In this document: positions 9,077-50,665 of the stretch, in pieces
How positions within the stretch are numbered: the first letter of the stretch is position 1
Layout: the number at the start of each line of letters is the position of its first letter
NCBI GenBank assembly: GCA_004295015.1
Contig: SHNE01000044.1
Coordinates: forward strand, 3,998 to 67,997
DNA from: Bacteroidota bacterium
Lineage (GTDB): Bacteria > Bacteroidota > Bacteroidia > AKYH767-A > 2013-40CM-41-45
DNA: 64,000 bases
Direction: 5' to 3'
Notes under the pieces: model-generated
The model's database searches: none
What the model was told of the DNA's origin: nothing
The model's input: the letters and a program-made list of their open reading frames with translations, nothing else
Position numbers and translations under genes: made by a program

Positions 9077-9766
9077 TTATTTATCGATTGCTAAGGCTGC
9101 ATTTATCAGTTGACGTATTGAGGCCAAATGTGATAGCAGAACCAATGGTACTACAACAGTAGGTAACCAATTAAATGGAAAGTAGAGAACGGCGACATTC
9201 GGTTGTTCCAACCCAAATTGTTGGAAGGGAAAGGGAGCAGATAGAATGGCAATACCAACGATATTAAATAGAAGTCCAAGGCAAATGATGTTCCATAGAA
9301 TAAGAAAGTTGGAATTCATTTGTTTTTTAATGAAGAAGAAATAATAAACAATGGGGGCGGTTAAACCGGAGATTATATCAAGATTCCTTCCTTCAAAAGT
9401 CATAATTTGTGGTACAAGTTGATGCAAGAAAAGCCAGAATAAAACCAATTCTACCGGAATGCGGACCATGTGTAGAAGCGTGAGCATTTTGAGATCAAGT
9501 GTGTCAATAAATCGACGTCCTCCTGGTAAAGCAAACAGTGCTATTATGGTTAGAATTGTCGGTAAGACCATTAATGCTAATCGTGGAGGCATGGTATCCG
9601 TTTGTTTTAAATACTCTGTCTGTCCAACCAGTCCTTGCAGAGCCATCCAGGCCAGTAGAATGATAAGGACAATTTTAGAATTCCGGGCCGCTCTGAAAAA
9701 AAGGATAACACTAAGGATAGTCGTAAAGACGAAGGTAATTCCGATTAGAGAGGGAAGTGTTTCCAT
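9077..9766 (-). CDS. Polytopic membrane protein, hypothetical
   Basis: 229 aa with about six hydrophobic helices. I recognise no motif. Confidence 0.5.
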   Translation of the reverse strand: METLPSLIGITFVFTTILSVILFFRAARNSKIVLIILLAWMALQGLVGQTEYLKQTDTMPPRLALMVLPTILTIIALFALPGGRRFIDTLDLKMLTLLHMVRIPVELVLFWLFLHQLVPQIMTFEGRNLDIISGLTAPIVYYFFFIKKQMNSNFLILWNIICLGLLFNIVGIAILSAPFPFQQFGLEQPNVAVLYFPFNWLPTVVVPLVLLSHLASIRQLINAALAIDK

Positions 9767-9862: not shown

Positions 9863-10897
9863 TTATATTTTAATTCCCATTACAAGTACATCATCAACCT
9901 GCTCGTATGCACCTTTCCATGTTTCAAAATAGGTAGAAAGTGAATGACCTTGCACAGACATGCTTTCCTGATGGATGCTCATCAACTGTTCTTTGAATTT
10001 TCCTGACATTATTTTCTTTCCATGCATCCCACCAAATTGATCAGCATAACCGTCGCTATACATGTATAATTGATCTCCCTTTTGAAGTTGTATTTCTTTT
10101 TGAGTAAATTTTCTGTCCTCGTCGGGGCGGAATCCACCGATCGGTAATTTATCCGGACGAAGGCTATCTGCCTGACCATTTCGTATAAGGAACAAAGGTC
10201 TGTTCGCTCCTGCAAAACTGGCTTCCATTGTCATGGGATTATATCGTAGAAGTGCGATATCCATCCCACTATGGCTTTCATTATCTTTTTGCTGTAAGGC
10301 AGTTACAATACCTTCATTCAAGTTTCCAAGAATTTCTGCAGGAGCACTTATTTTTTTTTGGCCAATTATCTGGTGTAAAAGTGAGGATCCCACCATCGAC
10401 ATGAATGCACCTGCGACACCATGTCCTGTACAATCGGCAATAGCTATGTATCCAACTCCATCCACTTCTTCAAAAAAGTAAAAATCTCCACTGACTATAT
10501 CTTTGGGTTGGTAAAGGACAAAGTATTCCGGAAAGATCTTACGGATATTTTCTTCCTTGGGCAATACGGCATATTGAATGTTTCGTGCATAACGTAAGCC
10601 ATCGAGAATGTCCTGGTTTTGTTGCCCTATGTTCAGATTCTTTCGTTCGAGTTCCCATTTTTGCATCATTACCTGATAAGCTCTCTCACTTAACTTAGCA
10701 GAGAGATTCTTATTCTCATCCTTAAAACGCTTGTTCACCCAACGGAAATAAAAATAGCCGCCTGCCAAAATAAAAATGTTGCTGAATATCAAAAAAAGAG
10801 TCAACTCTTGGCTGAAATAAGATCCTCTTCGGAGACTATCCAATAAAATGCCGGGATATGAAGCTAAGTACAACAGACTCATGAGCTTTAAATGCAA
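9863..10897 (-). CDS. Membrane-anchored PP2C-family (SpoIIE/RsbU-like) serine phosphatase, SiaA-like
   Basis: N-terminal transmembrane helices and a coiled coil, followed by a PP2C core: GDFYFFEEVDGVGYIAIADCTGHGVAGAFMSMV ... YMYSDGYADQFGG ... DDVLVMGIKI. Confidence 0.75.
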   Translation of the reverse strand: MHLKLMSLLYLASYPGILLDSLRRGSYFSQELTLFLIFSNIFILAGGYFYFRWVNKRFKDENKNLSAKLSERAYQVMMQKWELERKNLNIGQQNQDILDGLRYARNIQYAVLPKEENIRKIFPEYFVLYQPKDIVSGDFYFFEEVDGVGYIAIADCTGHGVAGAFMSMVGSSLLHQIIGQKKISAPAEILGNLNEGIVTALQQKDNESHSGMDIALLRYNPMTMEASFAGANRPLFLIRNGQADSLRPDKLPIGGFRPDEDRKFTQKEIQLQKGDQLYMYSDGYADQFGGMHGKKIMSGKFKEQLMSIHQESMSVQGHSLSTYFETWKGAYEQVDDVLVMGIKI

Positions 10898-11070
10898 GCT
10901 GCAAATTAGGCTTTTATTCTAAACTAATTGTTGATTTTTATGCTCTCTATAATGAAGCATTTGGCTAAGGAATACTGATCGACCGATTCAATTGTTATTT
11001 TATTCCTTATTTTTCTTTTGTAAACTGAAGTATATCCCTATTTTTGATCGATACCATTATCCCAAAAGCA

Positions 11071-11622
11071 ATGCCGGGCCCTGACATGTACAAATTGTTT
11101 AATCAGATGGATGAGGATAATATTATCCTTTCCTTCAAGGGCAGTATCAGCAAAGAGTTACTTTCTTCGATTTACGATATCATGGAAACGCGTCTGGATC
11201 AAACCAGCGATGATCAGCAAAGAAAGAAGAAATTTTACCATATCCTGGTGGAGAGTTTACAGAATATCTTTCATCATATGGAAGGCGTAAGTAGTGTAGA
11301 AAAAGGCAGTTTAGACAAAGAGGCTATGTTTATGGTAGGTTACCATCCTGCTACCGGTTACAGAATCCTGACAGGTAATTTTATGAAGAGTGATGAAGTA
11401 CCTGCTTTGGAAGAGAAACTGAAAAAGATAAATACCCTAAAGCCGGATGAGCTAAGAGAATATTACCGGGAAAAACTTGGTAGTACGGAACTCAGTGACC
11501 GTGGAGGTGCCGGATTGGGTTTTATTGATATGGCTCGTAAATCAGGGCAGAAGTTGGAATTTCATTTTCAGCCGGTAGAGAAGGGAATACATTTTTTTAC
11601 TTTCTCCGTTAGTATACGTTAA
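11071..11622 (+). CDS. SiaB-like protein kinase with a GHKL/anti-sigma-kinase-like fold
   Basis: ELSDRGGAGLGFIDMARKSGQKLEF resembles a G2-box ATP lid. It is divergent from the PP2C gene and immediately followed by a DUF1987 gene. The ORF track starts at a TTG at 11044; I prefer the ATG at 11071. Confidence 0.5.
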   Translation: MPGPDMYKLFNQMDEDNIILSFKGSISKELLSSIYDIMETRLDQTSDDQQRKKKFYHILVESLQNIFHHMEGVSSVEKGSLDKEAMFMVGYHPATGYRILTGNFMKSDEVPALEEKLKKINTLKPDELREYYREKLGSTELSDRGGAGLGFIDMARKSGQKLEFHFQPVEKGIHFFTFSVSIR

Positions 11623-11635
11623 AAAAAGAAGCAAT

Positions 11636-12019
11636 ATGGATCCTTTAATTATTGAAGAAAGTATTAAAACACCAACAATTTCATTCGATGCCGGCTCCGG
11701 TGTTCTGGAAATAAAAGGCAAATCTATTCCGGAGAATTCGCTGGAATTTTATAAACCTGTCTTCGATTGGTTGGACAAGTACACATCAAGTCCTGCACAG
11801 TCAACAGAGTTTCGCGTTCAATTGGAATATTTTAATACTAGCTCCAGTAAATGCCTGCTCGATCTTTTTCGCAAACTTGAAGCTACTGCTACTTCCGGAA
11901 AAAGCAAGGTGAAGGTAAGCTGGTTCTATGAAGCCGACGATGAAGACATGATGGAGGCCGGTGATGATTATCAGGCCTTGGTGAAAATTCCTTTTGAGTT
12001 GATAAAAGTGGAGGGTTGA
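11636..12019 (+). CDS. DUF1987 / SiaC-like partner-switch protein
   Basis: The SIPENSLEFYKPVFDWLDKY and QLEYFNTSSSKCLLDLF motifs match the DUF1987 (SiaC) signature as I recall it. The size, 127 aa, is typical. Confidence 0.55.
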   Translation: MDPLIIEESIKTPTISFDAGSGVLEIKGKSIPENSLEFYKPVFDWLDKYTSSPAQSTEFRVQLEYFNTSSSKCLLDLFRKLEATATSGKSKVKVSWFYEADDEDMMEAGDDYQALVKIPFELIKVEG

Positions 12020-12068
12020 GAAATTTCGCATTGGCTTATTTATTTAAGTATAATTTTTTTGGGGCTTC

Positions 12069-12416
12069 ATGACCGCACAAAACAACCACATCAACTACAT
12101 CGAGTTCAAGGCCATTGACCTTGAAAAAATAAAATCTTTTTATTCAACAGCCTTTGGCTGGACCTTTACTGATTATGGCCCGGGATATGTTGCTTTTGAA
12201 GAGAGCGGATTACAGGGAGGCTTTGAAAAAACGGATGCAAATATTGTAAATGGGGCTTTGGTTGTATTGTATCATCAAGACCTCATAATGTTAAAAGATA
12301 AAATTAAGGATGCAGGCGGAAGAATCTCCAAAGACATTTTTTCTTTTCCTGGTGGAAAACGTTTTCACTTTGTGGATCCGTCAGGGAATGAACTGGCAGT
12401 TTGGTCGGATAAATAA
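12069..12416 (+). CDS. VOC-family (glyoxalase/bleomycin-resistance fold) protein
   Basis: 115 aa. YIEFKAIDLEKIKSFYSTAFGWTF...YVAF has the betaalphabetabetabeta glyoxalase pattern. Confidence 0.65.
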   Translation: MTAQNNHINYIEFKAIDLEKIKSFYSTAFGWTFTDYGPGYVAFEESGLQGGFEKTDANIVNGALVVLYHQDLIMLKDKIKDAGGRISKDIFSFPGGKRFHFVDPSGNELAVWSDK

Positions 12417-26100: not shown

Positions 26101-27387
26101 TTGATGCGGCCTTTCCTGTTTCTGACTCTTTTATTAATTAGTTGTATCGACCTGCTTTGTTTTAATGAAGCATTTGCCTGCAGTATGTATAAGGTTACGA
26201 TTGATGATAAAACGATGGTTGGTTGTAACCATGACACATGGAATCAAACTCCTAGAATATGGTTTGAAACAGAATCTTACGGTGCTTGCTTCACAGGTGC
26301 GAGGCCTGTTGGAGAAAATAATTTTGCACCCCAATCTGGGATGAATGAATTCGGACTTGCTTTCTCACGACTTGATGCCGCAACTCCTTTGCAGGATGAT
26401 CTAAGTGCCAATAAAAAACAAATAGTGAATCCAACAGAATATCTGAAGGACATTTTGCATAAATGCAGAAATGTGGAGGAAGTAAAAATTTATGTTGATC
26501 AATATGATCGGAGTATATTTATTCACGACGTTTTTATCTATGTAGACAGATCTGGAAAGTATTTGATTGTGGAGCCATACATCACGACTATGGCTAATGA
26601 CCCTCAGTATGTATTAGCTAATTTTTGTCCTTCTCAAATAAAGGATTTCAATAGCATCAAACAAACCAGGTACATTAACGGTACAACATTTTTGAAGAAC
26701 AAATTAGACACCAGCCTAAGGTTTTGCAGAGAATTATCAGACACTATGCATGTATGTCGACAAAAAATCGGAGATGGTACTTTGCTTACAAGTATTTGGG
26801 ATTTGAAGGAAACAACTACATACTTATATTTCTACCATGACTACGAACATATGGTACAATTCAATTTAAAGGAAGAGTTAGCTAAAGGAGATCATATATT
26901 GGACATCACGACATTGTTTCCGCCTAACAAAGAGTTTGAAAAGTTGGCCAGCTTCAAAACGCCATTGAACAGTTTTCTTGTTGATAGATTTTTACGATTT
27001 TGTCTAGTGCTTTTTTTGTTTCTTTCATTCTACTACCTGTACACTTACTTCAGAAAAGCTAAAAGCCTTCCGTATTCCAATATCAAAGTGGGATTGTTCC
27101 TCCTTAGTTCCCTAATGAGTTATTACATCTTTGTTTTGGCTACAAAAATAAATATCTATTATTTTCCGGCACCCTACCAGGAACAGGATTTTTCATTGGT
27201 TAATGTGCTTAGTTTTATTCCTTTCTTGCTTTTACTTTTACTTATTCCTTTACTTAGATTTAATAGAAAATTATTCAGAGAGAAAAGCTGGACAATGATT
27301 TCTACCTGGATTCTAACATTGAATAATTTGGTGTTCATTGCCTTATTGTTTCTGTTTTTCTATTGGGGATTTTATGATATTTTTTAA
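26101..27387 (+). CDS. N-terminal Ntn-hydrolase (choloylglycine hydrolase / linear amide C-N hydrolase-like) domain fused to a C-terminal polytopic membrane domain
   Basis: The signal peptide ends ...AFA, directly followed by CSMYKVTIDDKTMVGCNHDTW. This fits the N-terminal nucleophile Cys plus the GRNxDW pattern of the C59 family. The last 150 aa contain about five transmembrane helices. Confidence 0.5.
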   Translation: MMRPFLFLTLLLISCIDLLCFNEAFACSMYKVTIDDKTMVGCNHDTWNQTPRIWFETESYGACFTGARPVGENNFAPQSGMNEFGLAFSRLDAATPLQDDLSANKKQIVNPTEYLKDILHKCRNVEEVKIYVDQYDRSIFIHDVFIYVDRSGKYLIVEPYITTMANDPQYVLANFCPSQIKDFNSIKQTRYINGTTFLKNKLDTSLRFCRELSDTMHVCRQKIGDGTLLTSIWDLKETTTYLYFYHDYEHMVQFNLKEELAKGDHILDITTLFPPNKEFEKLASFKTPLNSFLVDRFLRFCLVLFLFLSFYYLYTYFRKAKSLPYSNIKVGLFLLSSLMSYYIFVLATKINIYYFPAPYQEQDFSLVNVLSFIPFLLLLLLIPLLRFNRKLFREKSWTMISTWILTLNNLVFIALLFLFFYWGFYDIF

Positions 27388-27568: not shown

Positions 27569-27601
27569 GACAGGAATCTAACTTTAAGATTCCTGTTTTT
27601 T
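27569..27601 (+). terminator. Hairpin plus T7 run at the junction between the upstream gene region and the IS element
   Basis: ACAGGAATC-taactttaa-GATTCCTGT followed by TTTTTTT. Confidence 0.45.
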
Positions 27602-28542
27602 TATACATTCATACTTTCGGTCGATGCCTTTACAAACTCTACCTCCTTTCTGATTTTATTCTGGTAAGGATATTTCTTCCACCGTTTTTTCAATTTCATG
27701 GAACTCAGGTGTGCTGCATCCGGTGTCAGGAAATCTATACTTGAATGTGGCCTAACAGTATTATAGTTTAAAACATTTCTATCGATTTGCTTTTTTGCCT
27801 CTTTGTAATTTTGATAAACTCTTCTTGGGTAAAATTCATTTTTAAGTATACCATTCACGCGTTCAGCCAATGCATTCTCATATGGACTGCCACTTTGCGT
27901 CATACTAATATCAATTTCTGCCTTTTGAAGTAGTTCAATATATGCATATGAGCAATATTGGATTCCTCGGTCTGAGTGGTGAATTAGCTTAAACATTGAA
28001 GTGCATTTGCGATTCGAAATTGCCATTTCTAAAGCCTCCATACATCCATGTGCTTCTAAAGTCGGATGTAATGCATGACCAACTATCTTTCGAGAATAAA
28101 CATCAGTAATCAAGCTGAGATAGGCAAATCCTTGAAGAGTTCTTATATAGGTAATATCGCTCACCCACAACTGTTCAATTCCATTTATGACTATATCCTT
28201 GGTTAGATTTGGATACTTTTTTAACCAGTGATGTGAATCGGTTGTTTTAACCATCCTTTTACGCCTCCGAACTAATAAACCATGAAACCGAAGCAAATTA
28301 AATAACTGATCTCTCCCCATTTTAATCCCATGAATTTGCAAATGAGGATCTATAAGATGATATAACTTTCTTGTTCCTACTAGTGGAATATCATTCCGGA
28401 ATTCTTTGACAAAACCCAGCACTAATGCATTTGCAATTGTAGTTTTCTTTTCGTTTGCTTGAGTTTCATAATAAGCCTGACGGGTTACACCAAACAGTGC
28501 ACATAGTCTTTCCAGGCTAACATTTGGAAATACCTGCCTCAT
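27601..28542 (-). CDS. IS3-family transposase OrfB (DDE integrase core)
   Basis: LWVSDITYIR...HSDRGIQYCS...GSPYENALAERVNGILKNEF is the rve domain with the DDE triad context. Confidence 0.9.
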   Translation of the reverse strand: MRQVFPNVSLERLCALFGVTRQAYYETQANEKKTTIANALVLGFVKEFRNDIPLVGTRKLYHLIDPHLQIHGIKMGRDQLFNLLRFHGLLVRRRKRMVKTTDSHHWLKKYPNLTKDIVINGIEQLWVSDITYIRTLQGFAYLSLITDVYSRKIVGHALHPTLEAHGCMEALEMAISNRKCTSMFKLIHHSDRGIQYCSYAYIELLQKAEIDISMTQSGSPYENALAERVNGILKNEFYPRRVYQNYKEAKKQIDRNVLNYNTVRPHSSIDFLTPDAAHLSSMKLKKRWKKYPYQNKIRKEVEFVKASTESMNV

Positions 28543-28946
28543 TCTTTTGACTGTTTGGTACCAGGCTTTTTTCTGATTTTGATTTGCAAATCATCCTCAC
28601 TCACCTTTATTAAAGTTTCCAAACTATTTATTTTAAGTTTGGCGTGTTCAAGCGCCCGTGTTAGCTCATGAATCTTTCGCTGAAGGGCTTTAGAATCCAG
28701 GTCTTGTTGCATATGTTTTATAGACTTCTTGGACATGACGGATTCTAAGTTACGCACAGATGCTCTGGTAATCCAAAGTTTCAGCGTATTTCTACATAGG
28801 CCATACTTGAAACAAGCACCACGGATAGTGAGAATTCCGGTCTTGATTTCACCAATAATTTTTGTCATTTCTGCCTCATTTCGCCTCACATATGGGTCCT
28901 TACTGACAGGTGTAAGTCGAGGTCTTTTTTGTCTTATTTTTACCAT
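28539..28946 (-). CDS. IS3-family transposase OrfA (HTH plus leucine zipper)
   Basis: 135 aa, basic N-terminus, heptad Leu repeat. The 3' end reads CAAATCAAAATCAGAAAAAAGCC, containing A_AAA_AAG (plus strand 28567-28575). Confidence 0.85.
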   Translation of the reverse strand: MVKIRQKRPRLTPVSKDPYVRRNEAEMTKIIGEIKTGILTIRGACFKYGLCRNTLKLWITRASVRNLESVMSKKSIKHMQQDLDSKALQRKIHELTRALEHAKLKINSLETLIKVSEDDLQIKIRKKPGTKQSKE

Positions 28947-39388: not shown

Positions 39389-39928
39389 TTTCGGTTTGAC
39401 TTTTTTGGAGCGCTTCAATTAGTGACTTGTGTCGTGTTTTTTACTGTTTGATATCAAACTTCTTATTCAGCACAATTTCCTTGCATCTAATCCTGCAGAA
39501 TAAATTTACGATGTACAATATTTCGGATTGTAAATCTTTAATTTACATTAGGGTTTTTCATGTCAACGCTATTTCCAGGATCTTCAAAGAATCAATCGTT
39601 CGAATCTCAATTAAGCATATAATATCTTAATAAAGAGTCATTTAGCTTATTTATTTAGGTATGTCCCTTGCCTGATGATTTCTAGGATAAAGGTTTAATT
39701 GCCAAACTCTCCCGTTTTATTCAGACAGCCAAAACAGAATTATACTGCACTTTTTGAAGATGCTGTGTCGGTTTTTATCCAAGAATACCCCACCCGGGGG
39801 AGGCGTTTTTTATACTTTTAGACACGGTATAATCCCTTGATGACCTTATAATAATTGCCCTGTAAATCGGTATATTTACATTGATTTTGGTTCTGTGAAC
39901 GTATTTTATAAACAAGCCCCGGTATCCA

Positions 39929-42099: not shown

Positions 42100-45000
42100 T
42101 CATCGTTTCTTCCATCTGCTACCAAACAGTAGAATCTTTCTAAGCACATCCCAAACCAGTGCGAAGTAGAAGAGGATTGTCATTGCCCATATCACGGCGA
42201 TATTCACTGTGAAGGTATCATAGGTTTTTCCGAAAAATGATTTTGTTGGAGTGAAGAACATTCCCTTTAACGAATTTTCAGAGGGATTTACTCTGAAGAC
42301 AGGTTCGAAATAACTTATAACCTCATCCTTGTAAACACGGAGACGTTCCATTCCTGAACTGTTTCGTACAATTTGATCCAGACTCTCATTGTAGTAATCT
42401 CTTTTTCTTTCTCGGAATTCTCTTTGTCCATCCGGACTGCTTGTCATTTTTTCAATGATAGCTTCCTTCTTTTCACTGCTGGAATTAAATTGTTCGATGT
42501 AAAAATCTTTCAGATTTTCTAAATCCTTTCGCATTGTTTGAATGGTACTCATATCAGGCTTGCCGGCGTCATTGGTTTTTAACGTTAACAATTTAAGACG
42601 GGAATTCACTTTTTGCTCTTTCGTAAGTTCATTATAAACCAGTTTCAGGATTGTGTTCAGAGAGTCTGTTGAAGCACCTTTTCCTATAAGTCGTTCGCTT
42701 TTGTCTGTTCTTTCTCTTAATATTGGTATCCACCAGTCTTTTTTAAAGGTGGCTTCACTCATCTTTGCGTCAAGTGCAAAGAAGTCTCTCTCAAACTTAT
42801 TTTCTCTGAATTGATAAACACTCAGCGCTTCAAAAGCCCAACGCGATGCCATCACATTTCCGACGAACGGAACTTCAGCAGGATCACTGATGATAGGATT
42901 TAGCTTTTCAAATTTAACTATTACTCCACTCAGTAAAATTTGAGGTATGATGAGAAATGGAATTAAGATATAAATGGTAACAACAGAATCCAATCCTGAT
43001 GAAATATTTAGTCCAACCAGATTTGCGAAACAGGCGGTGGTAAATAATACCCACCAATATTGTAGCAGCATATCCTGAACCCCAAAGATTAGATTGCCTA
43101 TCAACACAAAAGATAAGGTTTGTATAGCCGAAACAATAAATAACAAAGCAATTTTCGAAAATAAATAACTTTGCCTGCTTAAATTCAGGAATTTTTCCCG
43201 CTGAAGAATTTTTCTGTCACGAATTATCTCTTCAGCACTTGCAGTCATTCCAAGAAATAAAGCAACTATAACGCATATAAATAAGTAAGCCGGTAAATTC
43301 GGATTATCGGTAAAGGAATAAGCTTCTCCGGGATTTGTATAACGTAGTATAAACCCCAAAATACCCGCGAGCAATGGAGCTTCGAGTAGGGTAATAGCCA
43401 TGTATTGTTTATTACTCAGCTTGGATAAAAAGTCGCGCGTAAAAAACACCCGCCACTGACGAAAGTAATTCGCTTTGTTTCCACTCGCATGAGTCTCTGC
43501 ATTTTCAAGTGCGCTTTTGTTTTCCTGTTCTGTCTTTTTCTTGTACCATTCATACCATTCCTTTGGGGAAATTTTTCTGATCCCTGTCCTGTTTCCAAAC
43601 TCATCGACAACTTCCTGATCAATAATATTAAAAATTTGTTCGGAGTTAATATTTCCGCAAGCCGGACATTCACTTTCGTCAGCATCTGCAAACTGTGCTT
43701 GTCTTTTGAAGTAAAGCAAAGAATCGGATGGGTTGCCGTAATAAATTGGATAGCCACCGGTATCAAGAATTAAAAGTCTGTCGAACATTCTGAAAATATC
43801 TGACGATGGTTGATGAATAACTACAAAAACCAATTTACCGCTAAGCGTCAATTGCTTCAACAGATCCATGACATTCTCTGCATCATGAGACGAGAGTCCG
43901 GAAGTTGGCTCGTCGACAAACAATACCGCCGGCTCACGGATAAGTTCCAAAGCAATATTAAGTCGTTTTCTTTGCCCGCCACTGATCGTCTTGTTCAGCG
44001 CATTTCCCACTTTCAATTCCGCTGTTTCTGTAAGTCCAAGGGAATCGAGCATGTTCATCACACGTACACGAATCTCCTCGTCAGAATCTTTTCCATAGAC
44101 AAGCTTCGTATTGTAAAACAAGTTTTGATACACACTCAACTCTTCAATCAACAAATCATCCTGAGGTATATTCCCAATCATTCCTTCAAGAACTCCTGCT
44201 TCTTTGTAAACGTCTTTTCCATTCAGCAATAATTTTCCTGAAGACACCGGAGAGGTCCCGTTCAGTACACTTAGCAATGTGGATTTTCCTGCCCCGCTGC
44301 TTCCCATGATTCCAACCAGTTCTCCGGAATTGGATGTGATGTTCAAAGAATGCAATCCTGTTTTCCCATTCGGAAATTTGAATTCGAGATTTTCAGCCCG
44401 AAGCTGTATTGGACGAATTTCTTTTTTATCAATGAAAAAGTTTAATACATCACTGTAGTATAAAGCCTGAATTTTTTGGCCACGTAAAACAGCGCCTTGT
44501 GTAAACACCGATACTTTTTCCGGATCCACCGGTTTTCCGTTTACGGTGAGGATGTCTTTTCCGGTGTAACGAAGGAAAAACATCCCTGCCGGCTCTATGT
44601 TTAGGAACCAAATCGTCTGATCCAAATCGGCATGTTGCAATTGATGGTATTGATGTGTGACTGAATCAGCATTTTTTCTTACACACAAAACAGACTTATC
44701 TTCAAGTGTACTCACATCAGGATTCTTCTGCGCCAAAGCCAGACAAAGCTGTTGTAAATTTTGTTCAATATTAAAAACTGTTGCAACCGTTTCTAAAAAT
44801 TCTCTCTCCGGCTCTGTGATAGCTGAATCAGAACTATGCATAAATTCGACCAGACGGATAAATACAATATATTTCTGACTGGTATTTAGTTCCTTATTGA
44901 TTTCAGTACAAATGCGCAAAGCTTTAACAGAACTCAGTGCAAGCTTCTTTCTTGCTTTTGTCAGATCTTCCCCTCCTTGTAAAGCCAGTAAATGTTGATC

Positions 45001-45150
45001 GAAAAGTTCCAGGTATTCAGGGATTCTTTGCAGACTAAGTTGTTGCCTTAAAAATGCTTCTACAACTGAACGGCTTTGCAAGGTTAACCTTTCGAGACTC
45101 GCGCCAATGGCAAACAGTTGCATTAAAGCTCTTAATATTCTTTCACTCAT
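42100..45150 (-). CDS. ABC transporter, fused ATPase plus ABC-2 permease (ABCG-like), with a roughly 250-aa N-terminal domain of unknown function
   Basis: Walker A (GIMGSSGAGKSTLL), signature (LSGGQRKRLNIALELI), Walker B (VLFVDEPTSGLS) and a C-terminal six-transmembrane ABC-2 region. Confidence 0.85.
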   Translation of the reverse strand: MSERILRALMQLFAIGASLERLTLQSRSVVEAFLRQQLSLQRIPEYLELFDQHLLALQGGEDLTKARKKLALSSVKALRICTEINKELNTSQKYIVFIRLVEFMHSSDSAITEPEREFLETVATVFNIEQNLQQLCLALAQKNPDVSTLEDKSVLCVRKNADSVTHQYHQLQHADLDQTIWFLNIEPAGMFFLRYTGKDILTVNGKPVDPEKVSVFTQGAVLRGQKIQALYYSDVLNFFIDKKEIRPIQLRAENLEFKFPNGKTGLHSLNITSNSGELVGIMGSSGAGKSTLLSVLNGTSPVSSGKLLLNGKDVYKEAGVLEGMIGNIPQDDLLIEELSVYQNLFYNTKLVYGKDSDEEIRVRVMNMLDSLGLTETAELKVGNALNKTISGGQRKRLNIALELIREPAVLFVDEPTSGLSSHDAENVMDLLKQLTLSGKLVFVVIHQPSSDIFRMFDRLLILDTGGYPIYYGNPSDSLLYFKRQAQFADADESECPACGNINSEQIFNIIDQEVVDEFGNRTGIRKISPKEWYEWYKKKTEQENKSALENAETHASGNKANYFRQWRVFFTRDFLSKLSNKQYMAITLLEAPLLAGILGFILRYTNPGEAYSFTDNPNLPAYLFICVIVALFLGMTASAEEIIRDRKILQREKFLNLSRQSYLFSKIALLFIVSAIQTLSFVLIGNLIFGVQDMLLQYWWVLFTTACFANLVGLNISSGLDSVVTIYILIPFLIIPQILLSGVIVKFEKLNPIISDPAEVPFVGNVMASRWAFEALSVYQFRENKFERDFFALDAKMSEATFKKDWWIPILRERTDKSERLIGKGASTDSLNTILKLVYNELTKEQKVNSRLKLLTLKTNDAGKPDMSTIQTMRKDLENLKDFYIEQFNSSSEKKEAIIEKMTSSPDGQREFRERKRDYYNESLDQIVRNSSGMERLRVYKDEVISYFEPVFRVNPSENSLKGMFFTPTKSFFGKTYDTFTVNIAVIWAMTILFYFALVWDVLRKILLFGSRWKKR

Positions 45151-45246
45151 AAAAAACGATTATGTACACGGTTGATAAAAGACAGGGTTAAATGTAGAAA
45201 AATTTAACTGCTATCCCACTATGAAAATGTGAAGGAAGTGGGATGT

Positions 45247-45286
45247 AAAAAAAAAGACCGTCCGGTTAATCCGGACGATCTTTTTT
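45247..45286. terminator. Bidirectional Rho-independent terminator
   Basis: AAAAAAAAGAC-CGTCCGG-ttaat-CCGGACG-ATCTTTTTT, a stem flanked by A and T runs. Confidence 0.7.
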
Positions 45287-45311
45287 AAGAATTACCTGAG
45301 GGGCCAAAATT

Positions 45312-46169
45312 TTAACCAATCATGCCATCGCGGACTTTCTTCACCGCTGCGGATAATTTTTCCAGATTGGCTTTATCAAGATCTTCCGGTGCCTTAATGC
45401 TGTCGTAAGTTTTTTTCAATTCTTCCAACTGAATATAAAGCTGAGCAGAGCTGGGGATTTTTTTCAACTCAGTGAATAAATTCACCAGGTTATCTACATA
45501 TAACTTTTGATTGTAAATTTTTTCGAAGATGTCGGAGTTTTCTTTAACACGCTCACGGTCTTTCATTAATTCAATGCTCAGGTATTGAACTTCGATGATT
45601 GTACCGGCTAATACGTGTGCAGCAACTTCAAGACGCTTATTGGTTTTAAGAAATGCATCAGTCTCAGCATAAGCGCGATCAATCATTTTAATGAGTGAAT
45701 CTTTGTTATCAGCATTCTCACGAAAGGTTGTAGTGAAGTTATCAAAAGTTTCCTGTACACCTAGTTTTTCAGAGAGCTTACGCGTACTTGCATAGTATTC
45801 TAAAAGATCCTGATTTTGCCCATAGAAGGCAGCATAAGCCATATCAATACCATAGACACCATAGTTGATAGCTTTTTTGTAAGCCGTATTGTATTTTCCT
45901 TCAGATGCCGGTGGATTCAGCAAGTCCTTGTTAAAAGGAACTTCGTGCTGATAAATGGCATTGATAATTTCCATAGGTGATGGAAGATTGGCAATCGTAT
46001 AAAAGAATTTAAAGTCGAGCAATTCTTTTGCAGCTATCGAGGCAGAATCTTGTGGTTCTTCCATGGAAGCGTCAATCGATTCCTCTGCTACTTGCTCAGT
46101 TTTATTACTGCTGCAAGAAAAGAGAATGCCGGTGCTGACCAGACTGAAAACAAGGAGAAGCTTTTTCAT
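45312..46169 (-). CDS. Lipoprotein, hypothetical
   Basis: MKKLLLVFSLVSTGILFSC lipobox. Helical with many charged residues. The track ORF extends to 46217. Confidence 0.55.
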   Translation of the reverse strand: MKKLLLVFSLVSTGILFSCSSNKTEQVAEESIDASMEEPQDSASIAAKELLDFKFFYTIANLPSPMEIINAIYQHEVPFNKDLLNPPASEGKYNTAYKKAINYGVYGIDMAYAAFYGQNQDLLEYYASTRKLSEKLGVQETFDNFTTTFRENADNKDSLIKMIDRAYAETDAFLKTNKRLEVAAHVLAGTIIEVQYLSIELMKDRERVKENSDIFEKIYNQKLYVDNLVNLFTELKKIPSSAQLYIQLEELKKTYDSIKAPEDLDKANLEKLSAAVKKVRDGMIG

Positions 46170-46314
46170 AAATAATTGAGATTTGATGCAAAAATAGAAA
46201 GGATTGGCTAAAATCAAAGAAGTTTAGCAATCCGGATTTCGAATTATGACATTTGGATGTGCAAATTGCCAGATCCTTTTAAAATGCCTTATTTCGTGAT
46301 GAAGATACGGATTA

Positions 46315-48342
46315 ATGTCAAAAACCAAAGTTCCCCATCGTAAAAAGCCTGCAGAGGCTAAAATCCCTAAGGATAACGCATTTCTTGTCTCAATCGGCTG
46401 GATTGCATTACTTTCCCTAGGGACATGGATGCTCTACTCATCCTCCCTTAAATTCGACATTCTCAATTGGGATGAGAAGCACTATATATATGAGCAGAGT
46501 ATGACCCTCGGAGTTTCTTGGGAAAATATACAGGCAATGTTCTCGAAAAAAGTGCTGGGTAGTTACAATCCATTAGTGTTAGTCTCCTTCGCCATTGATC
46601 ACGACCTCTCTGATTCCAAAGCTTCCTGGTATCATGGGGTGAACGTGTTTTTTCATATTCTAAATACTCTTTTACTCTTTGCTGTCGTTCGTAAACTTGG
46701 TTTTCGCCCCTTGATCGCCGGCTTTGTAGCCTTGCTCTTCGCCATTCATCCGATGCACATAGAATCCGTAGCCTGGATTGCAAGCAGAAAGGACGTATTG
46801 ATGGGCTTCTTTATGTTTTCTTCCTGGCTGATCTACCTGCAATTTAGAAAAACGAAAAAATGGTATACGTATGCCTTTAGTATTTTGCTGTTTCTATTTG
46901 CACTCTTATCGAAAGCACAAGCGGTGACGCTTCCATTGATATTTATTTTGTCTGATTACCTTCAGGATAAAACATGGACTTGGAAAGCTCTCTATAACAA
47001 AATTCCATTCTTAATTCTTTCCCTGATTATTGGCTATGTTGCAGTAAGCGGAAGTACTTTCTCGGCTGACAAGTATGCCATACCATTGAGTTTTATTGAT
47101 AAGATTTCATATTCTCTCATTGCTCTTTGGGTCTATATTTATAAGGCGATTCTCCCCATTCAGCAAAGTGCCATCTATGCTTTTCCGGAGAAAGGCTCAC
47201 AACAATTTATTCTTCAATTAATCATCAGTACTCTTTTGGTTATTGGAGCCGCATGGCTCATAGTAAAAAATTTCCGGGCCAGGCCGCTTATTGCTTTTGC
47301 CTTGTTGTTTTTTCTGATGAATACATTTCTCACTTTGCATATTGTTGCCGTAAACAGTTCACTTATTTACGAACGTTTCGCTTATCTCAGTTATATCGGT
47401 CTCTTTTTTCTTGTTGCTCTTCCTTTGGGGAATGAGAAATTTAAAAAGCAGGCACCTTGGTTCTTTGCGGGAGTCTGTATACTTTTTGCCTACCTCACAA
47501 GTCAGAGATTACCGGTATGGAAAAACAGTATCGCTTTGTGGACCGATACAATTGAAAAAAATCCAAGTTCCAGCGAAGCATATAATAATCGTGGCGACTA
47601 CTATAATTCCGCTGGAGTGTTAGACAAAGCATTCGAAGACTTTACAAATTCAACGAAAGTAAATACTAAGCAACCAAATGCATTTAATAATCTCGCAGTA
47701 ATATGGTTCAAGCGTAATGATCTTGATAAAGCATTGGTAGAAAATCAGAAAGCCCTTGATCTTGATCCGGAGTATGCACAAGCAACATCAAACAGGGGTA
47801 TTTTATATTTTAATAAAGGACAAATGGATTCTGCCAAATTCTATTATAGAAAGGCAATAGGTCTTTTACCTAATTATGCCTTTGCCATTTGTAATCTTGG
47901 ATCTGTATATCTCAAAGAGGAAAAGCCCGACTCTGCCATTATGTATTACAAACAAGCTCTTGCAATTCAAACTCAGTATCATGATGCGAGTAAATATTTA
48001 GGGCTGGCATATCTGAAAAAACAAGCCTTCGATGATGCAGAGCAGGCAATGTACAATGCACAAAAGATGAGTAAGACATCAGATGCTTTACAAGTTCTCA
48101 GTTCAGAGTATGTGATCCTTGCTTCGAAAGCATTTCACAACGATGAAAAAGATAAGGCTATACTCTTGTGTGAAAGAGCCATAAAAGCAAATCCTCAAAA
48201 TGCGGAAGCATATTATAATCTTGGCGGCTATTACATGACCCTACAAAATCTCACAAAGACTAGAGAGAACTGGAAAAAGGCCCTGCAGATTAATCCAAAC
48301 TACAAAGAAGCAAAAGAATGGTTGGAGAGGATAGGGGGCTAA
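46315..48342 (+). CDS. TMTC-like protein: N-terminal polytopic (PMT/DUF2723-like) membrane domain fused to C-terminal TPR repeats
   Basis: About 11 transmembrane helices in the first 400 aa. At least seven TPR units (AYNNRGDYY, AFNNLAVIW, ...) in the C-terminal 270 aa. Confidence 0.6.
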   Translation: MSKTKVPHRKKPAEAKIPKDNAFLVSIGWIALLSLGTWMLYSSSLKFDILNWDEKHYIYEQSMTLGVSWENIQAMFSKKVLGSYNPLVLVSFAIDHDLSDSKASWYHGVNVFFHILNTLLLFAVVRKLGFRPLIAGFVALLFAIHPMHIESVAWIASRKDVLMGFFMFSSWLIYLQFRKTKKWYTYAFSILLFLFALLSKAQAVTLPLIFILSDYLQDKTWTWKALYNKIPFLILSLIIGYVAVSGSTFSADKYAIPLSFIDKISYSLIALWVYIYKAILPIQQSAIYAFPEKGSQQFILQLIISTLLVIGAAWLIVKNFRARPLIAFALLFFLMNTFLTLHIVAVNSSLIYERFAYLSYIGLFFLVALPLGNEKFKKQAPWFFAGVCILFAYLTSQRLPVWKNSIALWTDTIEKNPSSSEAYNNRGDYYNSAGVLDKAFEDFTNSTKVNTKQPNAFNNLAVIWFKRNDLDKALVENQKALDLDPEYAQATSNRGILYFNKGQMDSAKFYYRKAIGLLPNYAFAICNLGSVYLKEEKPDSAIMYYKQALAIQTQYHDASKYLGLAYLKKQAFDDAEQAMYNAQKMSKTSDALQVLSSEYVILASKAFHNDEKDKAILLCERAIKANPQNAEAYYNLGGYYMTLQNLTKTRENWKKALQINPNYKEAKEWLERIGG

Positions 48343-48380
48343 AACTTCTGAATCTACCCTTCATTCACTACCTTTACCAC

Positions 48381-48857
48381 ATGCATTCACCATCATTTGA
48401 CGAAATCTACATGGAGCTGGCGCAAAATCTTTCGCGCAAATCGCACTGTGTGAAAATTGGAGTAGGGGCAGTTCTGACAAAAGAAACCCGTATTGTTTCC
48501 TTAGGATATAATGGTCCGCCTGCCGGTACTCATAATTGTGATCAGGAATGGCCGGGTGTAGGTTGTGCTAGAGATAGTAAAGGAAGTTGTTCGCTCGCAC
48601 TTCATGCGGAACAAAATGCGATTCTTTATGCTGCCAAAAATGGGGTGCCTATGAATGGATGCACCTTATATGTCACTCTTTCCCCTTGTCTGGCTTGTGC
48701 CCGCATCATCTTCACAATGGGCATTCGAAAGGTTTTGTTCTTAGAATCTTACGCGGCATACAAAGGCATAGGGCTCGATGAAGGGGTAGACTTTTTACGT
48801 CGGTTTGGGGTTGAAGTGGAGCAATATGTGCCGGGTACCGAAAAGGTTAATGCCTGA
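48381..48857 (+). CDS. dCMP/cytidine deaminase-family zinc enzyme (ComEB-like)
   Basis: HAEQNAI and SPCLACAR zinc-ligand motifs. Start at the ATG at 48381. Confidence 0.8.
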   Translation: MHSPSFDEIYMELAQNLSRKSHCVKIGVGAVLTKETRIVSLGYNGPPAGTHNCDQEWPGVGCARDSKGSCSLALHAEQNAILYAAKNGVPMNGCTLYVTLSPCLACARIIFTMGIRKVLFLESYAAYKGIGLDEGVDFLRRFGVEVEQYVPGTEKVNA

Positions 48858-49039
48858 TACACCTGGCATTTTATTTATTTAACTCTCTTTTTTGTAAAAA
48901 TTTAAAACATTTTGAGGAAAACAGAGTTTAACTATGTCTGCGGGAACCATTCCTGTTCTCCAGGATTTTAAGCATACAGGGTCTGATTTATAAAGCAGCT
49001 GATCCATTCAATTATTAATCCGGAAATAAATTTAATTCA

Positions 49040-50665
49040 GTGAACAAACTCAGACTTTGGTTACCCTTTATTATGGCAGCCATTCTTGCGCTCGGTATTT
49101 ATGTGGGAATGCGTCTCAATGAACCCTTCAAAAGCAGCCGTTCGTTTTTTTCTTTTCGAACAGGACAATTCAATAAAATCAACGACGTAATAAATTACAT
49201 CAACAATGAATACGTTGATACTGTCAATCAAAAATCTCTTGTTGAGAATACCATCTCTCAATTGCTTCATCAGTTGGATCCACACTCTGCCTATATTCCT
49301 GCGGATGAGTTGCAGGCAATGAACGAGCCATTGGAAGGAAATTTTGACGGGATAGGTATAGAGTTTCATGTGCAGGATGATACCATTATGGTTGTTTCTG
49401 CTGTTGCCGGTGGTCCATCTGAACAGCTGGGTATTCAAAGTGGTGACCGCATTATTGCAGTTGAAGGAAAAAATGTAGCACATATAAATATTTCTAATGC
49501 GGAGGTTATGCAGCTTCTGCGTGGACCTAGTGGCACAAAAGTGAAGGTCACTATTTTACGGAAAAGTACCGGACAGAAAATGGTTTATAGCATAACACGT
49601 GGTAAAATTCCTATTTACAGTGTGGATGTTGCCTATATGTTAAACAAGGAAACCGGTTATATTAAAGTAAGCCACTTTGCAGACAGAACATACGACGAGT
49701 ACTTAAATGCTTTCGTAAAACTTAAAGATGCCGGCATGGAAAGTCTGGTTCTTGATCTCCGCGGGAATCCCGGTGGTTATATGAAGTCGGCCATCCAGTT
49801 GTCTGATGAATTTCTTCCCGATAGAAAATTGGTTGTCTACACTGAAGGGCGCTCTCGTCCTCGTGAGTCTTTTTACGCATCACAACGTGGCTTCTTCGAA
49901 CAGGGGGCATTAATTGTTTTGGTGGATGAAGGAAGTGCTTCAGCCAGTGAGATTGTAGCAGGTGCTTTGCAAGATTGGGATCGTGCAACGATTGTCGGCA
50001 GGAGATCATTTGGGAAAGGATTGGTGCAGGAACAAAGTATTTTCCCTGACGGTTCTGCGATGCGTTTAACGATAGCCAGATATTATACTCCTACCGGAAG
50101 AAGCATACAAAAACCTTACGCCGGTGGTTATGAAGCTTATTCCAATGAATTGTACGACAGAATGAAAAAAGGAGAACTGGCTTCATCTGACAGTATTCAA
50201 TTTGCCGACTCATTGCATTATACCACACCAGGTGGTAGAACCGTTTATGGCGGCGGAGGAATTATGCCTGATGTATTTGTTTCCATGGATACCGGGATGA
50301 CATCACAGTATTATGCCGAGGTGAGCAGCAAAGGAATGATTTCCCAGTTCGCATTTGATTACCTTGATCAAAACAGAAAAATGTTTGCGAAGTATAAAAC
50401 ATTTGAAGAGTATAAAAATTCCTTCACAGTGTCAGATGATCTTTTCAGAAAATTTTTGGATTATTCAGTTAAAGGTGGAGTAGAAAGGTCAGAATCCGGG
50501 ATAAAAGTTTCCTCTGAGCTCATTCGCACCCAAATCAAAGCGCTCATCGCCCGACAAATTTGGAAGAACGATGGTTTTTATCCAATCATTCAGACTTTGG
50601 ATAAAACAGTAGCCAAAGCCCTTGAACTTATTGAGAAGAAGCAGGTGGCGGTGAAGGGGAGTTAA
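49040..50665 (+). CDS. S41-family C-terminal processing peptidase (CtpA-like)
   Basis: N-terminal anchor, a PDZ domain (GIGIEF...GDRIIAVEG), LDLRGNPGG, and the catalytic Ser/Lys region SASASEIVAG...GKG. Confidence 0.85.
   Translation: MNKLRLWLPFIMAAILALGIYVGMRLNEPFKSSRSFFSFRTGQFNKINDVINYINNEYVDTVNQKSLVENTISQLLHQLDPHSAYIPADELQAMNEPLEGNFDGIGIEFHVQDDTIMVVSAVAGGPSEQLGIQSGDRIIAVEGKNVAHINISNAEVMQLLRGPSGTKVKVTILRKSTGQKMVYSITRGKIPIYSVDVAYMLNKETGYIKVSHFADRTYDEYLNAFVKLKDAGMESLVLDLRGNPGGYMKSAIQLSDEFLPDRKLVVYTEGRSRPRESFYASQRGFFEQGALIVLVDEGSASASEIVAGALQDWDRATIVGRRSFGKGLVQEQSIFPDGSAMRLTIARYYTPTGRSIQKPYAGGYEAYSNELYDRMKKGELASSDSIQFADSLHYTTPGGRTVYGGGGIMPDVFVSMDTGMTSQYYAEVSSKGMISQFAFDYLDQNRKMFAKYKTFEEYKNSFTVSDDLFRKFLDYSVKGGVERSESGIKVSSELIRTQIKALIARQIWKNDGFYPIIQTLDKTVAKALELIEKKQVAVKGS

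Follow-up and report, generated by a model that had tools for sequence, protein, structure and literature searches.

What does a Sia-type partner-switching module control where no gene for a diguanylate cyclase accompanies it? This question was raised by a stretch of 64 kb (hereafter, the window) of the 254-kb contig SHNE01000044.1 from a metagenome-assembled genome labelled "Bacteroidetes bacterium", in which the gene for a membrane PP2C phosphatase is transcribed divergently from a tandem of genes for a SiaB-like kinase and a small SiaC-like (DUF1987) protein. So far, the Sia system is known solely for its control of a cyclic di-GMP (c-di-GMP) cyclase in Pseudomonas, whereas the kinase-phosphoprotein core was found here to be widespread in Bacteroidota, apparently with another output. 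A preliminary description of the locus, made from the sequence, had proposed such a module and left its target as unknown. The best explanation overall, to which we assign a probability of roughly 0.45, is a SiaABC-type threonine-phosphorylation partner switch with a non-cyclase output, for which an operon encoding a lipoprotein and an ABCG-type exporter is the most likely target.

Open reading frames (ORFs) of the window were called, searched against profiles (Pfam and NCBIfam), and compared with PDB sequences and with the loci of relatives (designated by L numbers). In a SiaC-centred survey, ORFs were called and clustered in 80 fetched genome loci together with the window (81 loci), and 77 loci were counted; in an exporter-centred survey, loci were fetched independently by means of the exporter N-terminus, and the 47 with sufficient flank were counted. 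Conservation is given as mean pairwise identity, or from the alignment, over the orthologues of 43 species. The SiaC-like protein of the window is annotated in the database as a plain DUF1987 protein, and database names for the module proteins refer to their domains only. In the literature, we found no description of Sia-type modules in Bacteroidota and no paper that mentions DUF6272; the literature found on DUF1987 consisted of the SiaC-SiaD structure paper alone, and "SiaC" in papers on Bacteroidota was apparently an unrelated protein.

Assignment of the three proteins to the Sia families

The gene at 11636-12019 (plus strand) encodes a SiaC-family (DUF1987), STAS-like phosphoprotein of 127 aa with Thr68 as the predicted phosphosite. 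The protein matched the SiaC profile of Pfam (PF09345) with an E-value of 1.2e-43 (148 bits against a gathering cut-off of 24.5; 119 of 120 profile positions) and SiaC in the PDB (6kko_C/6k4f) with an E-value of 8.5e-16, and the PENS, DW, and NTSS motifs, from which its relationship to SiaC had been suspected in the preliminary description, were in register with the structures. Thr68, in the motif YFNTSSSKC, aligned with T68 of the Pseudomonas aeruginosa protein (PaSiaC) and did not vary across sets of 24 and 43 orthologues. In PaSiaC, T68 lies in NTSS at the start of helix alpha2 and is the phosphosite mapped by mass spectrometry (PMC7647112). Judging from this alignment, a phospho-switch at Thr68 is quite likely. 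Mean pairwise identity among the SiaC-like proteins was 75% over the 43 species, which belong to several orders, and this is unusually high for a small regulator. An acidic stretch, DDEDMMEAGDDY, was also invariant in the SiaC-like orthologues (the window and L001-L080), and PaSiaC does not share it. Homologues of the protein numbered 7111 at an E-value of 1e-5 or lower, the best of which were all from Bacteroidia. When one genome per species was scanned, at least 590 species contained one of the clade signature peptides, YFNTSSSKC or KGKSIPEN, and their labels included Bacteroidales, Flavobacteriales, Chitinophagales, Salinivirgaceae, Rikenellaceae, and Cryomorphaceae.

The preceding gene (11044-11622, plus strand; likely start, 11071) encodes a predicted Ser/Thr protein kinase of the SiaB family (DUF6272). 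The product, 192 aa as listed, matched PF19788 (DUF6272) with an E-value of 7.6e-38, passed the cut-off of the NCBIfam model SiaB_fam_kinase (NF038262; 153 bits against 85), and aligned with SiaB in the PDB (6kko_A) over 170 residues (E-value of 2.2e-10). Residues kept in 95% or more of the 43 orthologues were E70, N74, H77, H78, G154-G155-x-G157-L158-G159, and A164-R165-K166. Among these, E70 and N74 constitute an N-box-like E..N pair, and E70 aligned with E61 of PaSiaB, the predicted catalytic Glu (PMC7647112). In the preliminary description, this protein had been called a GHKL-like kinase: the conserved Glu and Asn, the Gly-rich lid, and membership of the SiaB family bear out a kinase candidate, but no match to HATPase_c of Pfam was obtained even at an E-value of 10 or lower, and the putative GHKL likeness is one of motifs. 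In 71-74 of the 77 loci, a SiaB-like gene immediately preceded SiaC (median gap, 21 nt); its mean pairwise identity was 49%.

The divergent gene (9863-10897, minus strand) encodes a PP2C phosphatase of the SpoIIE type with 344 aa (PF07228, E-value of 1.1e-20), of which the PP2C domain of SiaA (PDB 6k4e; E-value of 1.1e-31) was the best solved relative. The protein consists of one transmembrane segment (about residues 31-53), a charged helical/coiled-coil linker, and the PP2C domain (about residues 100-344); since this was the single strong hydrophobic segment, the enzyme is considered to be anchored in the membrane, essentially without an extracytoplasmic domain. D138, D155, G158, D282, G283, and D335 aligned with D457, D474, G477, D600, G601, and D653, the six active-site residues of SiaA (PMC7647112). 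The arrangement described previously, with a membrane PP2C divergent from the tandem of the kinase and DUF1987 genes, was thereby confirmed, and neither of the outcomes named there as refuting it (no DUF1987 match for the 127-aa protein, or a kinase candidate devoid of the ATP lid and catalytic residues) occurred.

None of the three proteins reached the NCBIfam equivalog cut-off of its Pseudomonas counterpart: 98.6 bits against 150 for SiaC (NF038265), 82.5 bits against 225 for SiaB (NF038264), and 169 bits against 700 for SiaA (NF038263), the last with a match to model positions 379-656 of 658 only. They are therefore members of the families and not orthologues of Pseudomonas SiaA, SiaB, and SiaC. 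With this distinction, the identity of the module (SiaA-PP2C-like, SiaB-family, and SiaC-family proteins) may be regarded as highly probable. An anti-phage defence system was rejected as the identity of the trio, which had no match in PADLOC.

A PP2C gene was found within eight genes of SiaC in only 14 of the 77 loci. In the wider clade of the window (L002, L004, L085, L086, L089, L090, and L109), it was likewise divergent; in another group, it was upstream and co-directional, and in Bacteroidales, it did not adjoin SiaB-SiaC. In L032 (5054-8356) and L068 (5117-8440), the PP2C upstream of SiaB-SiaC was a protein of approximately 1100 aa with Reg_prop beta-propeller and Y_Y_Y domains, which we take to be the sensor type of the hybrid two-component systems of Bacteroides. 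Since the sensor types of PP2C differ among relatives, the input of the module varies widely, while the kinase-phosphoprotein core is constant.

Absence of a cyclase and replacement of the SiaD-contacting residues

No GG[DE]EF motif was found in any frame of the window and 164 related loci (165 loci, 2.36 Mb), a scan confined to these loci, and no GGDEF domain of Pfam was present among the window genes scanned. The absence of a nearby GGDEF gene, on which the preliminary description had rested its question, therefore stood. Its more general statement, that Bacteroidota generally lack c-di-GMP signalling, agrees with a census of 2005, to which the four Bacteroidetes genomes available at the time contributed no diguanylate cyclases (PMC1183210). 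The output of the module is almost certainly not an adjacent cyclase.

The residues of SiaC that contact the stalk of SiaD have been listed from the SiaC-SiaD structure (PMC8457831). Around the phosphosite, Y65, N67, T68, and S69 were 100% conserved in the Bacteroidota clade. The SiaD-contact residues were swapped in the clade (D79 to R/K, R103 to D104, L107 to A108, D114 to L/I, D29 to K/R, and Y31 to I); in the protein of the window, D79, R103, L107, and D114 were replaced by R, D, A, and L, respectively, and only the change of E110 to D was conservative. The replacing residues were themselves conserved in the clade, often with reversed charge, a pattern that would be expected if a conserved but different partner bound to the same alpha2/alpha3 face. 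It has been proposed that DUF1987 proteins in general modulate adjacent proteins (PMC8457831).

Since the SiaBC core is widespread where cyclases are rare or absent, another conserved output must exist for the family. An output that is still c-di-GMP, through a SiaD-like cyclase encoded elsewhere in the genome, would be compatible with the fact that the window represents 64 kb of a 254-kb contig, and some Bacteroidota may encode GGDEF proteins. The lack of GG[DE]EF in the 2.36 Mb of clade loci, the early census without cyclases, and the replacement of the charged SiaD-contact residues make this very improbable.

An ABCG-type exporter as the candidate output

The candidate output is an ABCG-type half-transporter belonging to the ABC (ATP-binding cassette) class with 1016 aa, encoded at 42100-45150 (minus strand; PF00005, PF01061, and TIGR00955), together with a conserved all-alpha lipoprotein (cl14, for cluster 14; 285 aa as annotated) encoded upstream of it in the same operon (45312-46169, minus strand). 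An exporter of approximately 1020 aa was convergent with, and directly 3' of, SiaC in 50 of the 77 loci (median gap, 88 nt), and lay within five genes of it in 54. The survey of the neighbourhood of DUF1987 thus revealed one constant neighbour, SiaB, and one recurrent neighbour, the ABCG exporter, so that the "unknown target" became a specific candidate, an ABCG-type exporter operon widespread in Bacteroidota.

The linkage was maintained in several arrangements. The THUMP gene that precedes SiaB and marks the main lineage was missing from 17 of the 50 adjacent cases, in which the upstream neighbours varied; that the SiaC-ABC junction persists despite changes in the gene before SiaB was counted in favour of a functional link. 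One to nine genes were inserted between the module and the exporter in L143, L088, L131, and L110, and in L105 and L125, the genes PP2C-cl23-SiaB-SiaC were located two housekeeping genes (PriA and THUMP) upstream of cl14-cl17-ABC. In L141 (6616-12268), SiaC was followed after 13 nt by co-directional cl14 and ABC genes, and a PP2C containing a transmembrane/coiled-coil region lay 11 nt beyond ABC in convergent orientation. This locus of 16.8 kb contained no SiaB-like gene. In L096, PP2C was located directly after ABC. Downstream of the module, the order in the window (ABC, cl14, TPR, dCMP deaminase, and S41 peptidase) was the same as in L002, L004, and L086. Furthermore, the conservation of SiaC (75%) was close to that of the nucleotide-binding domain (NBD; 72%) and transmembrane domain (TMD; 66%) of the exporter, and far above that of SiaB (49%).

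The exporter comprises a TerB-like helical domain (about residues 1-145), an FHA-like beta-sandwich (about 150-240), the NBD (266-417), the ABC-2 TMD (564-753), and a C-terminal extension of approximately 260 aa; the N-terminal 263 residues and the extension carry no Pfam annotation. It scored 245 bits with TIGR00955, and ABCG1 and ABCG2 of the PDB aligned over residues 263-754. AlphaFold2 predicted two domains for residues 1-263, with a pLDDT (predicted local distance difference test) of 89.9 and a pTM (predicted TM-score) of 0.84. For the helical domain, TerB (PF05099) was detected in homologues and Foldseek gave a match to the TerB-like protein PG1108. For the beta-sandwich, nearly all of the top Foldseek matches were FHA, with a probability of 0.9-1.0 and a TM-score of 0.4-0.5 (relative to the target) and with weak E-values of 0.06-0.7; Pfam FHA gave no match to the exporter N-terminus, and the domain keeps only G197, N204-G205, and G219. 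As for the lipoprotein, no match was found in Pfam or NCBIfam, and its AlphaFold2 model (pLDDT of 79.7) led in Foldseek only to non-specific helical bundles and to no informative fold. The order cl14-(cl17)-ABC was observed in most of the ABC-centred loci. In many relatives, the exporter operon also contained a lipoprotein of approximately 145 aa, and the exporter-lipoprotein operon was widespread in Bacteroidota.

On the other hand, a number of observations weigh against the exporter as the target. The reciprocal neighbourhood test lowered confidence in the link: SiaC was present in only 16 of the 47 metagenome loci centred on ABC that had sufficient flank, so that in many lineages the exporter functions in the absence of the module. 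The THUMP methylase, S41 peptidase, and guaA genes recurred with comparable deep synteny, and ancient gene order alone could hence explain much of the adjacency. As many as 33 of the 50 adjacent cases came from one lineage context, and in the window itself, the module and the exporter are 30 kb apart. The N-terminal domains of the exporter were poorly conserved (39-49%) in comparison with SiaC. The Foldseek E-values for the FHA-like fold were weak, as given above, and no conserved Arg, Ser, or His was present in the loops in which the canonical phosphothreonine-binding residues of FHA (GR and SxxH) are expected; the exporter FHA was therefore not adopted as a canonical reader of phosphorylated Thr68. 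In addition, the kinase and phosphatase activities, as well as the active phospho-state, are taken from homology only.

Several of these observations would also be expected of a real Sia-type switch whose target (an enzyme, a transcription factor, or several proteins) is encoded elsewhere, with the exporter adjacency being inherited gene order. The exporter was missing from the fetched flanks of 22 of the 77 SiaC-centred loci (29%), several of which had short flanks, and SiaC was missing from 31 of the 47 ABC-centred loci (66%). The shared synteny of THUMP, S41, and guaA points in the same direction, and the 75% conservation of SiaC fits a hub with multiple partners. When the neighbour families of the exporter-less loci were ranked (80 neighbours in relatives), no other candidate output recurred, and only PP2C genes did. 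Conversely, the module was found near the exporter in at least four arrangements, including the tandem SiaC-cl14-ABC with its 13-nt gap, and the SiaC-ABC junction stayed while the gene upstream of SiaB varied; both observations weigh against this reading. We regard an unlinked target as a serious possibility, at somewhat longer than even odds. Because the link was non-reciprocal and deep synteny of this kind is also seen for housekeeping genes, the designation of the exporter system as the direct target of the SiaC-like protein, which is based on gene neighbourhood, is put forward here as a tentative one.

The conservation data also bear on a kinase-centred logic as in SpoIIAB or RsbW, in which the SiaB-like protein would sequester a sigma factor or another regulator, and the SiaC-like protein would merely be the antagonist of the SiaB-like protein. 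SiaB has been described as an anti-sigma-factor-like kinase of a partner-switching system (PMC7647112), and the constant pairing of SiaB and SiaC (71-74 of the 77 loci) is in line with this logic. However, the window genes scanned and the 25 commonest neighbour families of the exporter-less loci included no sigma-70 family domain, and the identities of SiaB (49%) and SiaC (75%) are the reverse of those expected if SiaB held the conserved target. Moreover, SiaC and PP2C accompany the exporter in L141 without SiaB, and the output in Pseudomonas is bound by SiaC and not by SiaB (PMC8457831). The kinase-centred logic is consequently considered unlikely.

Proposed mechanism

Under the preferred reading, a partner switch with the exporter operon as its target, the SiaB-family kinase would phosphorylate Thr68 of the SiaC-family protein, and the membrane-anchored PP2C, which has no periplasmic sensor domain here, would remove the phosphate upon a membrane or envelope cue, sensed either through its transmembrane/coiled-coil region or via a partner. 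Unphosphorylated SiaC, which would be binding-competent like PaSiaC and antagonists of the SpoIIAA type, may then bind to its target by the Thr68/alpha2/alpha3 face. This target would be the lipoprotein and ABCG-type exporter operon (42100-46169), and SiaC may gate export in the manner in which MlaB regulates MlaF, but under phospho-control. Extended to Bacteroidota as a whole, the SiaC-like protein could possibly be a Thr68-switchable, STAS-like regulator of a lipoprotein and a TerB/FHA-like ABCG exporter, fed by varied PP2C sensors; this extension is offered with reserve.

Genes surrounding the module

The divergent intergenic region between PP2C and the SiaB-like gene (10898-11070) contains a promoter-like element at about 11039-11046. 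This element, TATTTTTG (of the form TAnnTTTG, read from the sequence), overlaps TTG 11044, the listed start of the kinase gene, and fits what we take to be the Bacteroidetes -7 promoter consensus. The true start is probably ATG 11071, which gives 183 aa, the length with which the kinase of the relative L081 was called; the intergenic gap amounts to 146-173 nt depending on the start. A sigma-70 promoter scan of the region did not yield signals above those of shuffled sequences.

A multi-pass membrane protein of 229 aa is encoded at 9077-9766 (minus strand), 96 nt downstream of PP2C on the same strand, and may be co-transcribed with the phosphatase. It had no match in Pfam or NCBIfam. In L081, its position is taken by a gene for 228 aa, which does not hold for L082 and L083.

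Further SiaC-like and signalling genes were observed in the loci of relatives. In L014 (approximately 2091-2470) and L059, a second, lone SiaC-like paralogue without an adjacent SiaB was flanked by guaA and the S41 peptidase gene; both are Bacteroidales-type loci, and the paralogues lie upstream of the main SiaB-SiaC pair. Genes for canonical STAS (anti-sigma antagonist-like, approximately 112 aa) and Hpt-like (approximately 120 aa) proteins recurred a few genes from SiaB-SiaC in Bacteroidales-type loci (for example, L053:3466-3804 and L050:19566-19928), which suggests a second phospho-signalling set in the conserved neighbourhood.

The VOC gene and a lineage-specific accessory block

The gene downstream of SiaC (12069-12416, plus strand) encodes a VOC protein of 115 aa (PF00903, E-value of 4.8e-8). 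Its start is 49 nt after the SiaC stop on the same strand, and there was no terminator-like site or hairpin between the two; the closeness noted in the preliminary description stands, and read-through transcription from SiaC may extend into the gene. This short gap is also what would speak for the reading, hinted at in the same description, that the VOC protein is co-transcribed with the SiaC-like protein as its partner or target. However, the gene was a singleton, unique to the window among the 77 related loci, and is located at the edge of an insertion of 30 kb. It was also missing after SiaC in the closest relatives in which that position is visible; the SiaC proteins of these relatives and L082 (L081-L083) were 88-90% identical to that of the window: in L081 (90%), SiaC was followed by a 428-aa ORF equivalent to window 26101-27387, and in L083, by a 262-aa ORF at the contig end, while L082 ended at SiaC and was uninformative. 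The VOC protein was accordingly rejected as a partner; as a conserved partner it is effectively refuted, and the chance that it is the target is minimal. It is a recent arrival with the accessory insertion and not a conserved component of the module.

Upstream of SiaC, L081 kept the order of the window: M64 peptidase, 153-aa ORF, 564-aa TPR protein, 228-aa membrane protein, PP2C, SiaB, and SiaC. VOC, CreD, AraC, DinB-like, and the 229-aa membrane protein, all near the trio, were singletons among the 81 loci. CreD, AraC, DinB, and the 229-aa protein were rejected as partners since they are specific to the window; only the last recurs (in L081).

The insertion was delimited by tblastx/blastn comparisons with L002, L004, L085, L086, and L081. 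In the first four of these, which are more distant relatives than L081, the match to window 9863-12010 ran directly into the match to 42109-50665; since the SiaC-side and exporter-side sequences are contiguous in relatives, 12020-42099 (approximately 30 kb) is lineage-specific accessory DNA. Genes for detoxification and stress were found in it: by Pfam, the block encodes two VOC proteins, CreD, two AraC proteins, an esterase, a multicopper oxidase, a LytS/LytTR pair, and an IS3-like transposase, and also a TonB-dependent receptor-like protein, an ArsR/AHSA1 pair, an Alg9-like GT22 protein, SPFH, DUF389, and an FG-GAP protein sorted by the type IX secretion system. The IS3-like element (27601-28946, minus strand) consists of a 313-aa ORF with rve and rve_3 and an overlapping upstream ORF of 135 aa, which had no Pfam match. 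As L081 carries other content at the SiaC junction, this site is a hotspot of variable gene content. No tRNA gene was found in the window, and hence none flanks the block. The sole junction-proximal repeat was an imperfect direct repeat of 21 nt (19 of 21 matches; 12031-12051 and 39642-39662), one copy of which begins 12 nt after the SiaC stop, with the other 27.6 kb downstream. It is within a rough chance estimate for an AT-rich region, and its position at the junction is suggestive. An integration signature was not assigned to the block, which has neither a tRNA nor convincing att repeats.

Comparison with known systems

The module shares with SiaABCD of Pseudomonas aeruginosa the three protein families, the order of kinase and then phosphoprotein, Thr68 in NTSS, the active-site residues of SiaA, and the Glu of SiaB. 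It differs in that no siaD/GGDEF gene is nearby and the charged residues of SiaC that contact SiaD are replaced. In addition, the phosphatase gene is divergent instead of first in the operon, and its product is without the N-terminal sensor half of SiaA (approximately 380 aa); all three proteins are below the equivalog cut-offs, and the phosphatase gene is non-adjacent in most relatives.

PP2C, a kinase, and a small STAS-fold phosphoprotein are also the components of RsbU/RsbV/RsbW and SpoIIE/SpoIIAA/SpoIIAB, in which the phosphosite is likewise at the N-terminus of helix alpha2 (PMC7647112). Unlike these switches, there is no linked sigma factor here, the kinase belongs to DUF6272/SiaB and not to HATPase_c, and the phosphoprotein belongs to DUF1987 and not to STAS of Pfam.

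Regulation of an ABC transporter by a small STAS-like protein to which it is genetically linked has a precedent in MlaFEDB of E. coli, in which MlaF, the ABC ATPase, is under the control of the STAS protein MlaB (PMC7367683). The Mla system is an MCE-type importer/exporter, whereas the transporter here is of the ABCG type and its link with SiaC is one of gene order. To our knowledge, MlaB is not phospho-regulated by a dedicated pair of kinase and phosphatase. Rv1747 of M. tuberculosis, an FHA-containing ABC transporter linked with PknF and under Ser/Thr-phosphorylation control, similarly is an NBD-TMD half-transporter with N-terminal domains of the FHA type (PMC3138270). However, the FHA domains of Rv1747 are canonical and two in number, and its kinase is of the Hanks type, while the exporter here has one non-canonical FHA-like and one TerB-like domain, and a separate STAS-like protein would be the substrate of the kinase, which belongs to the SiaB type.

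Biological significance

If the exporter operon is the target of the switch, this would be the first output other than c-di-GMP for the Sia family and a phospho-controlled version of ABC regulation of the MlaB type. For the ABC exporters of bacteria, it would represent a new principle of regulation, by which envelope signals are fed into export, and would provide the first functional handle on the DUF1987 and DUF6272 proteins of Bacteroidota and on the exporter.

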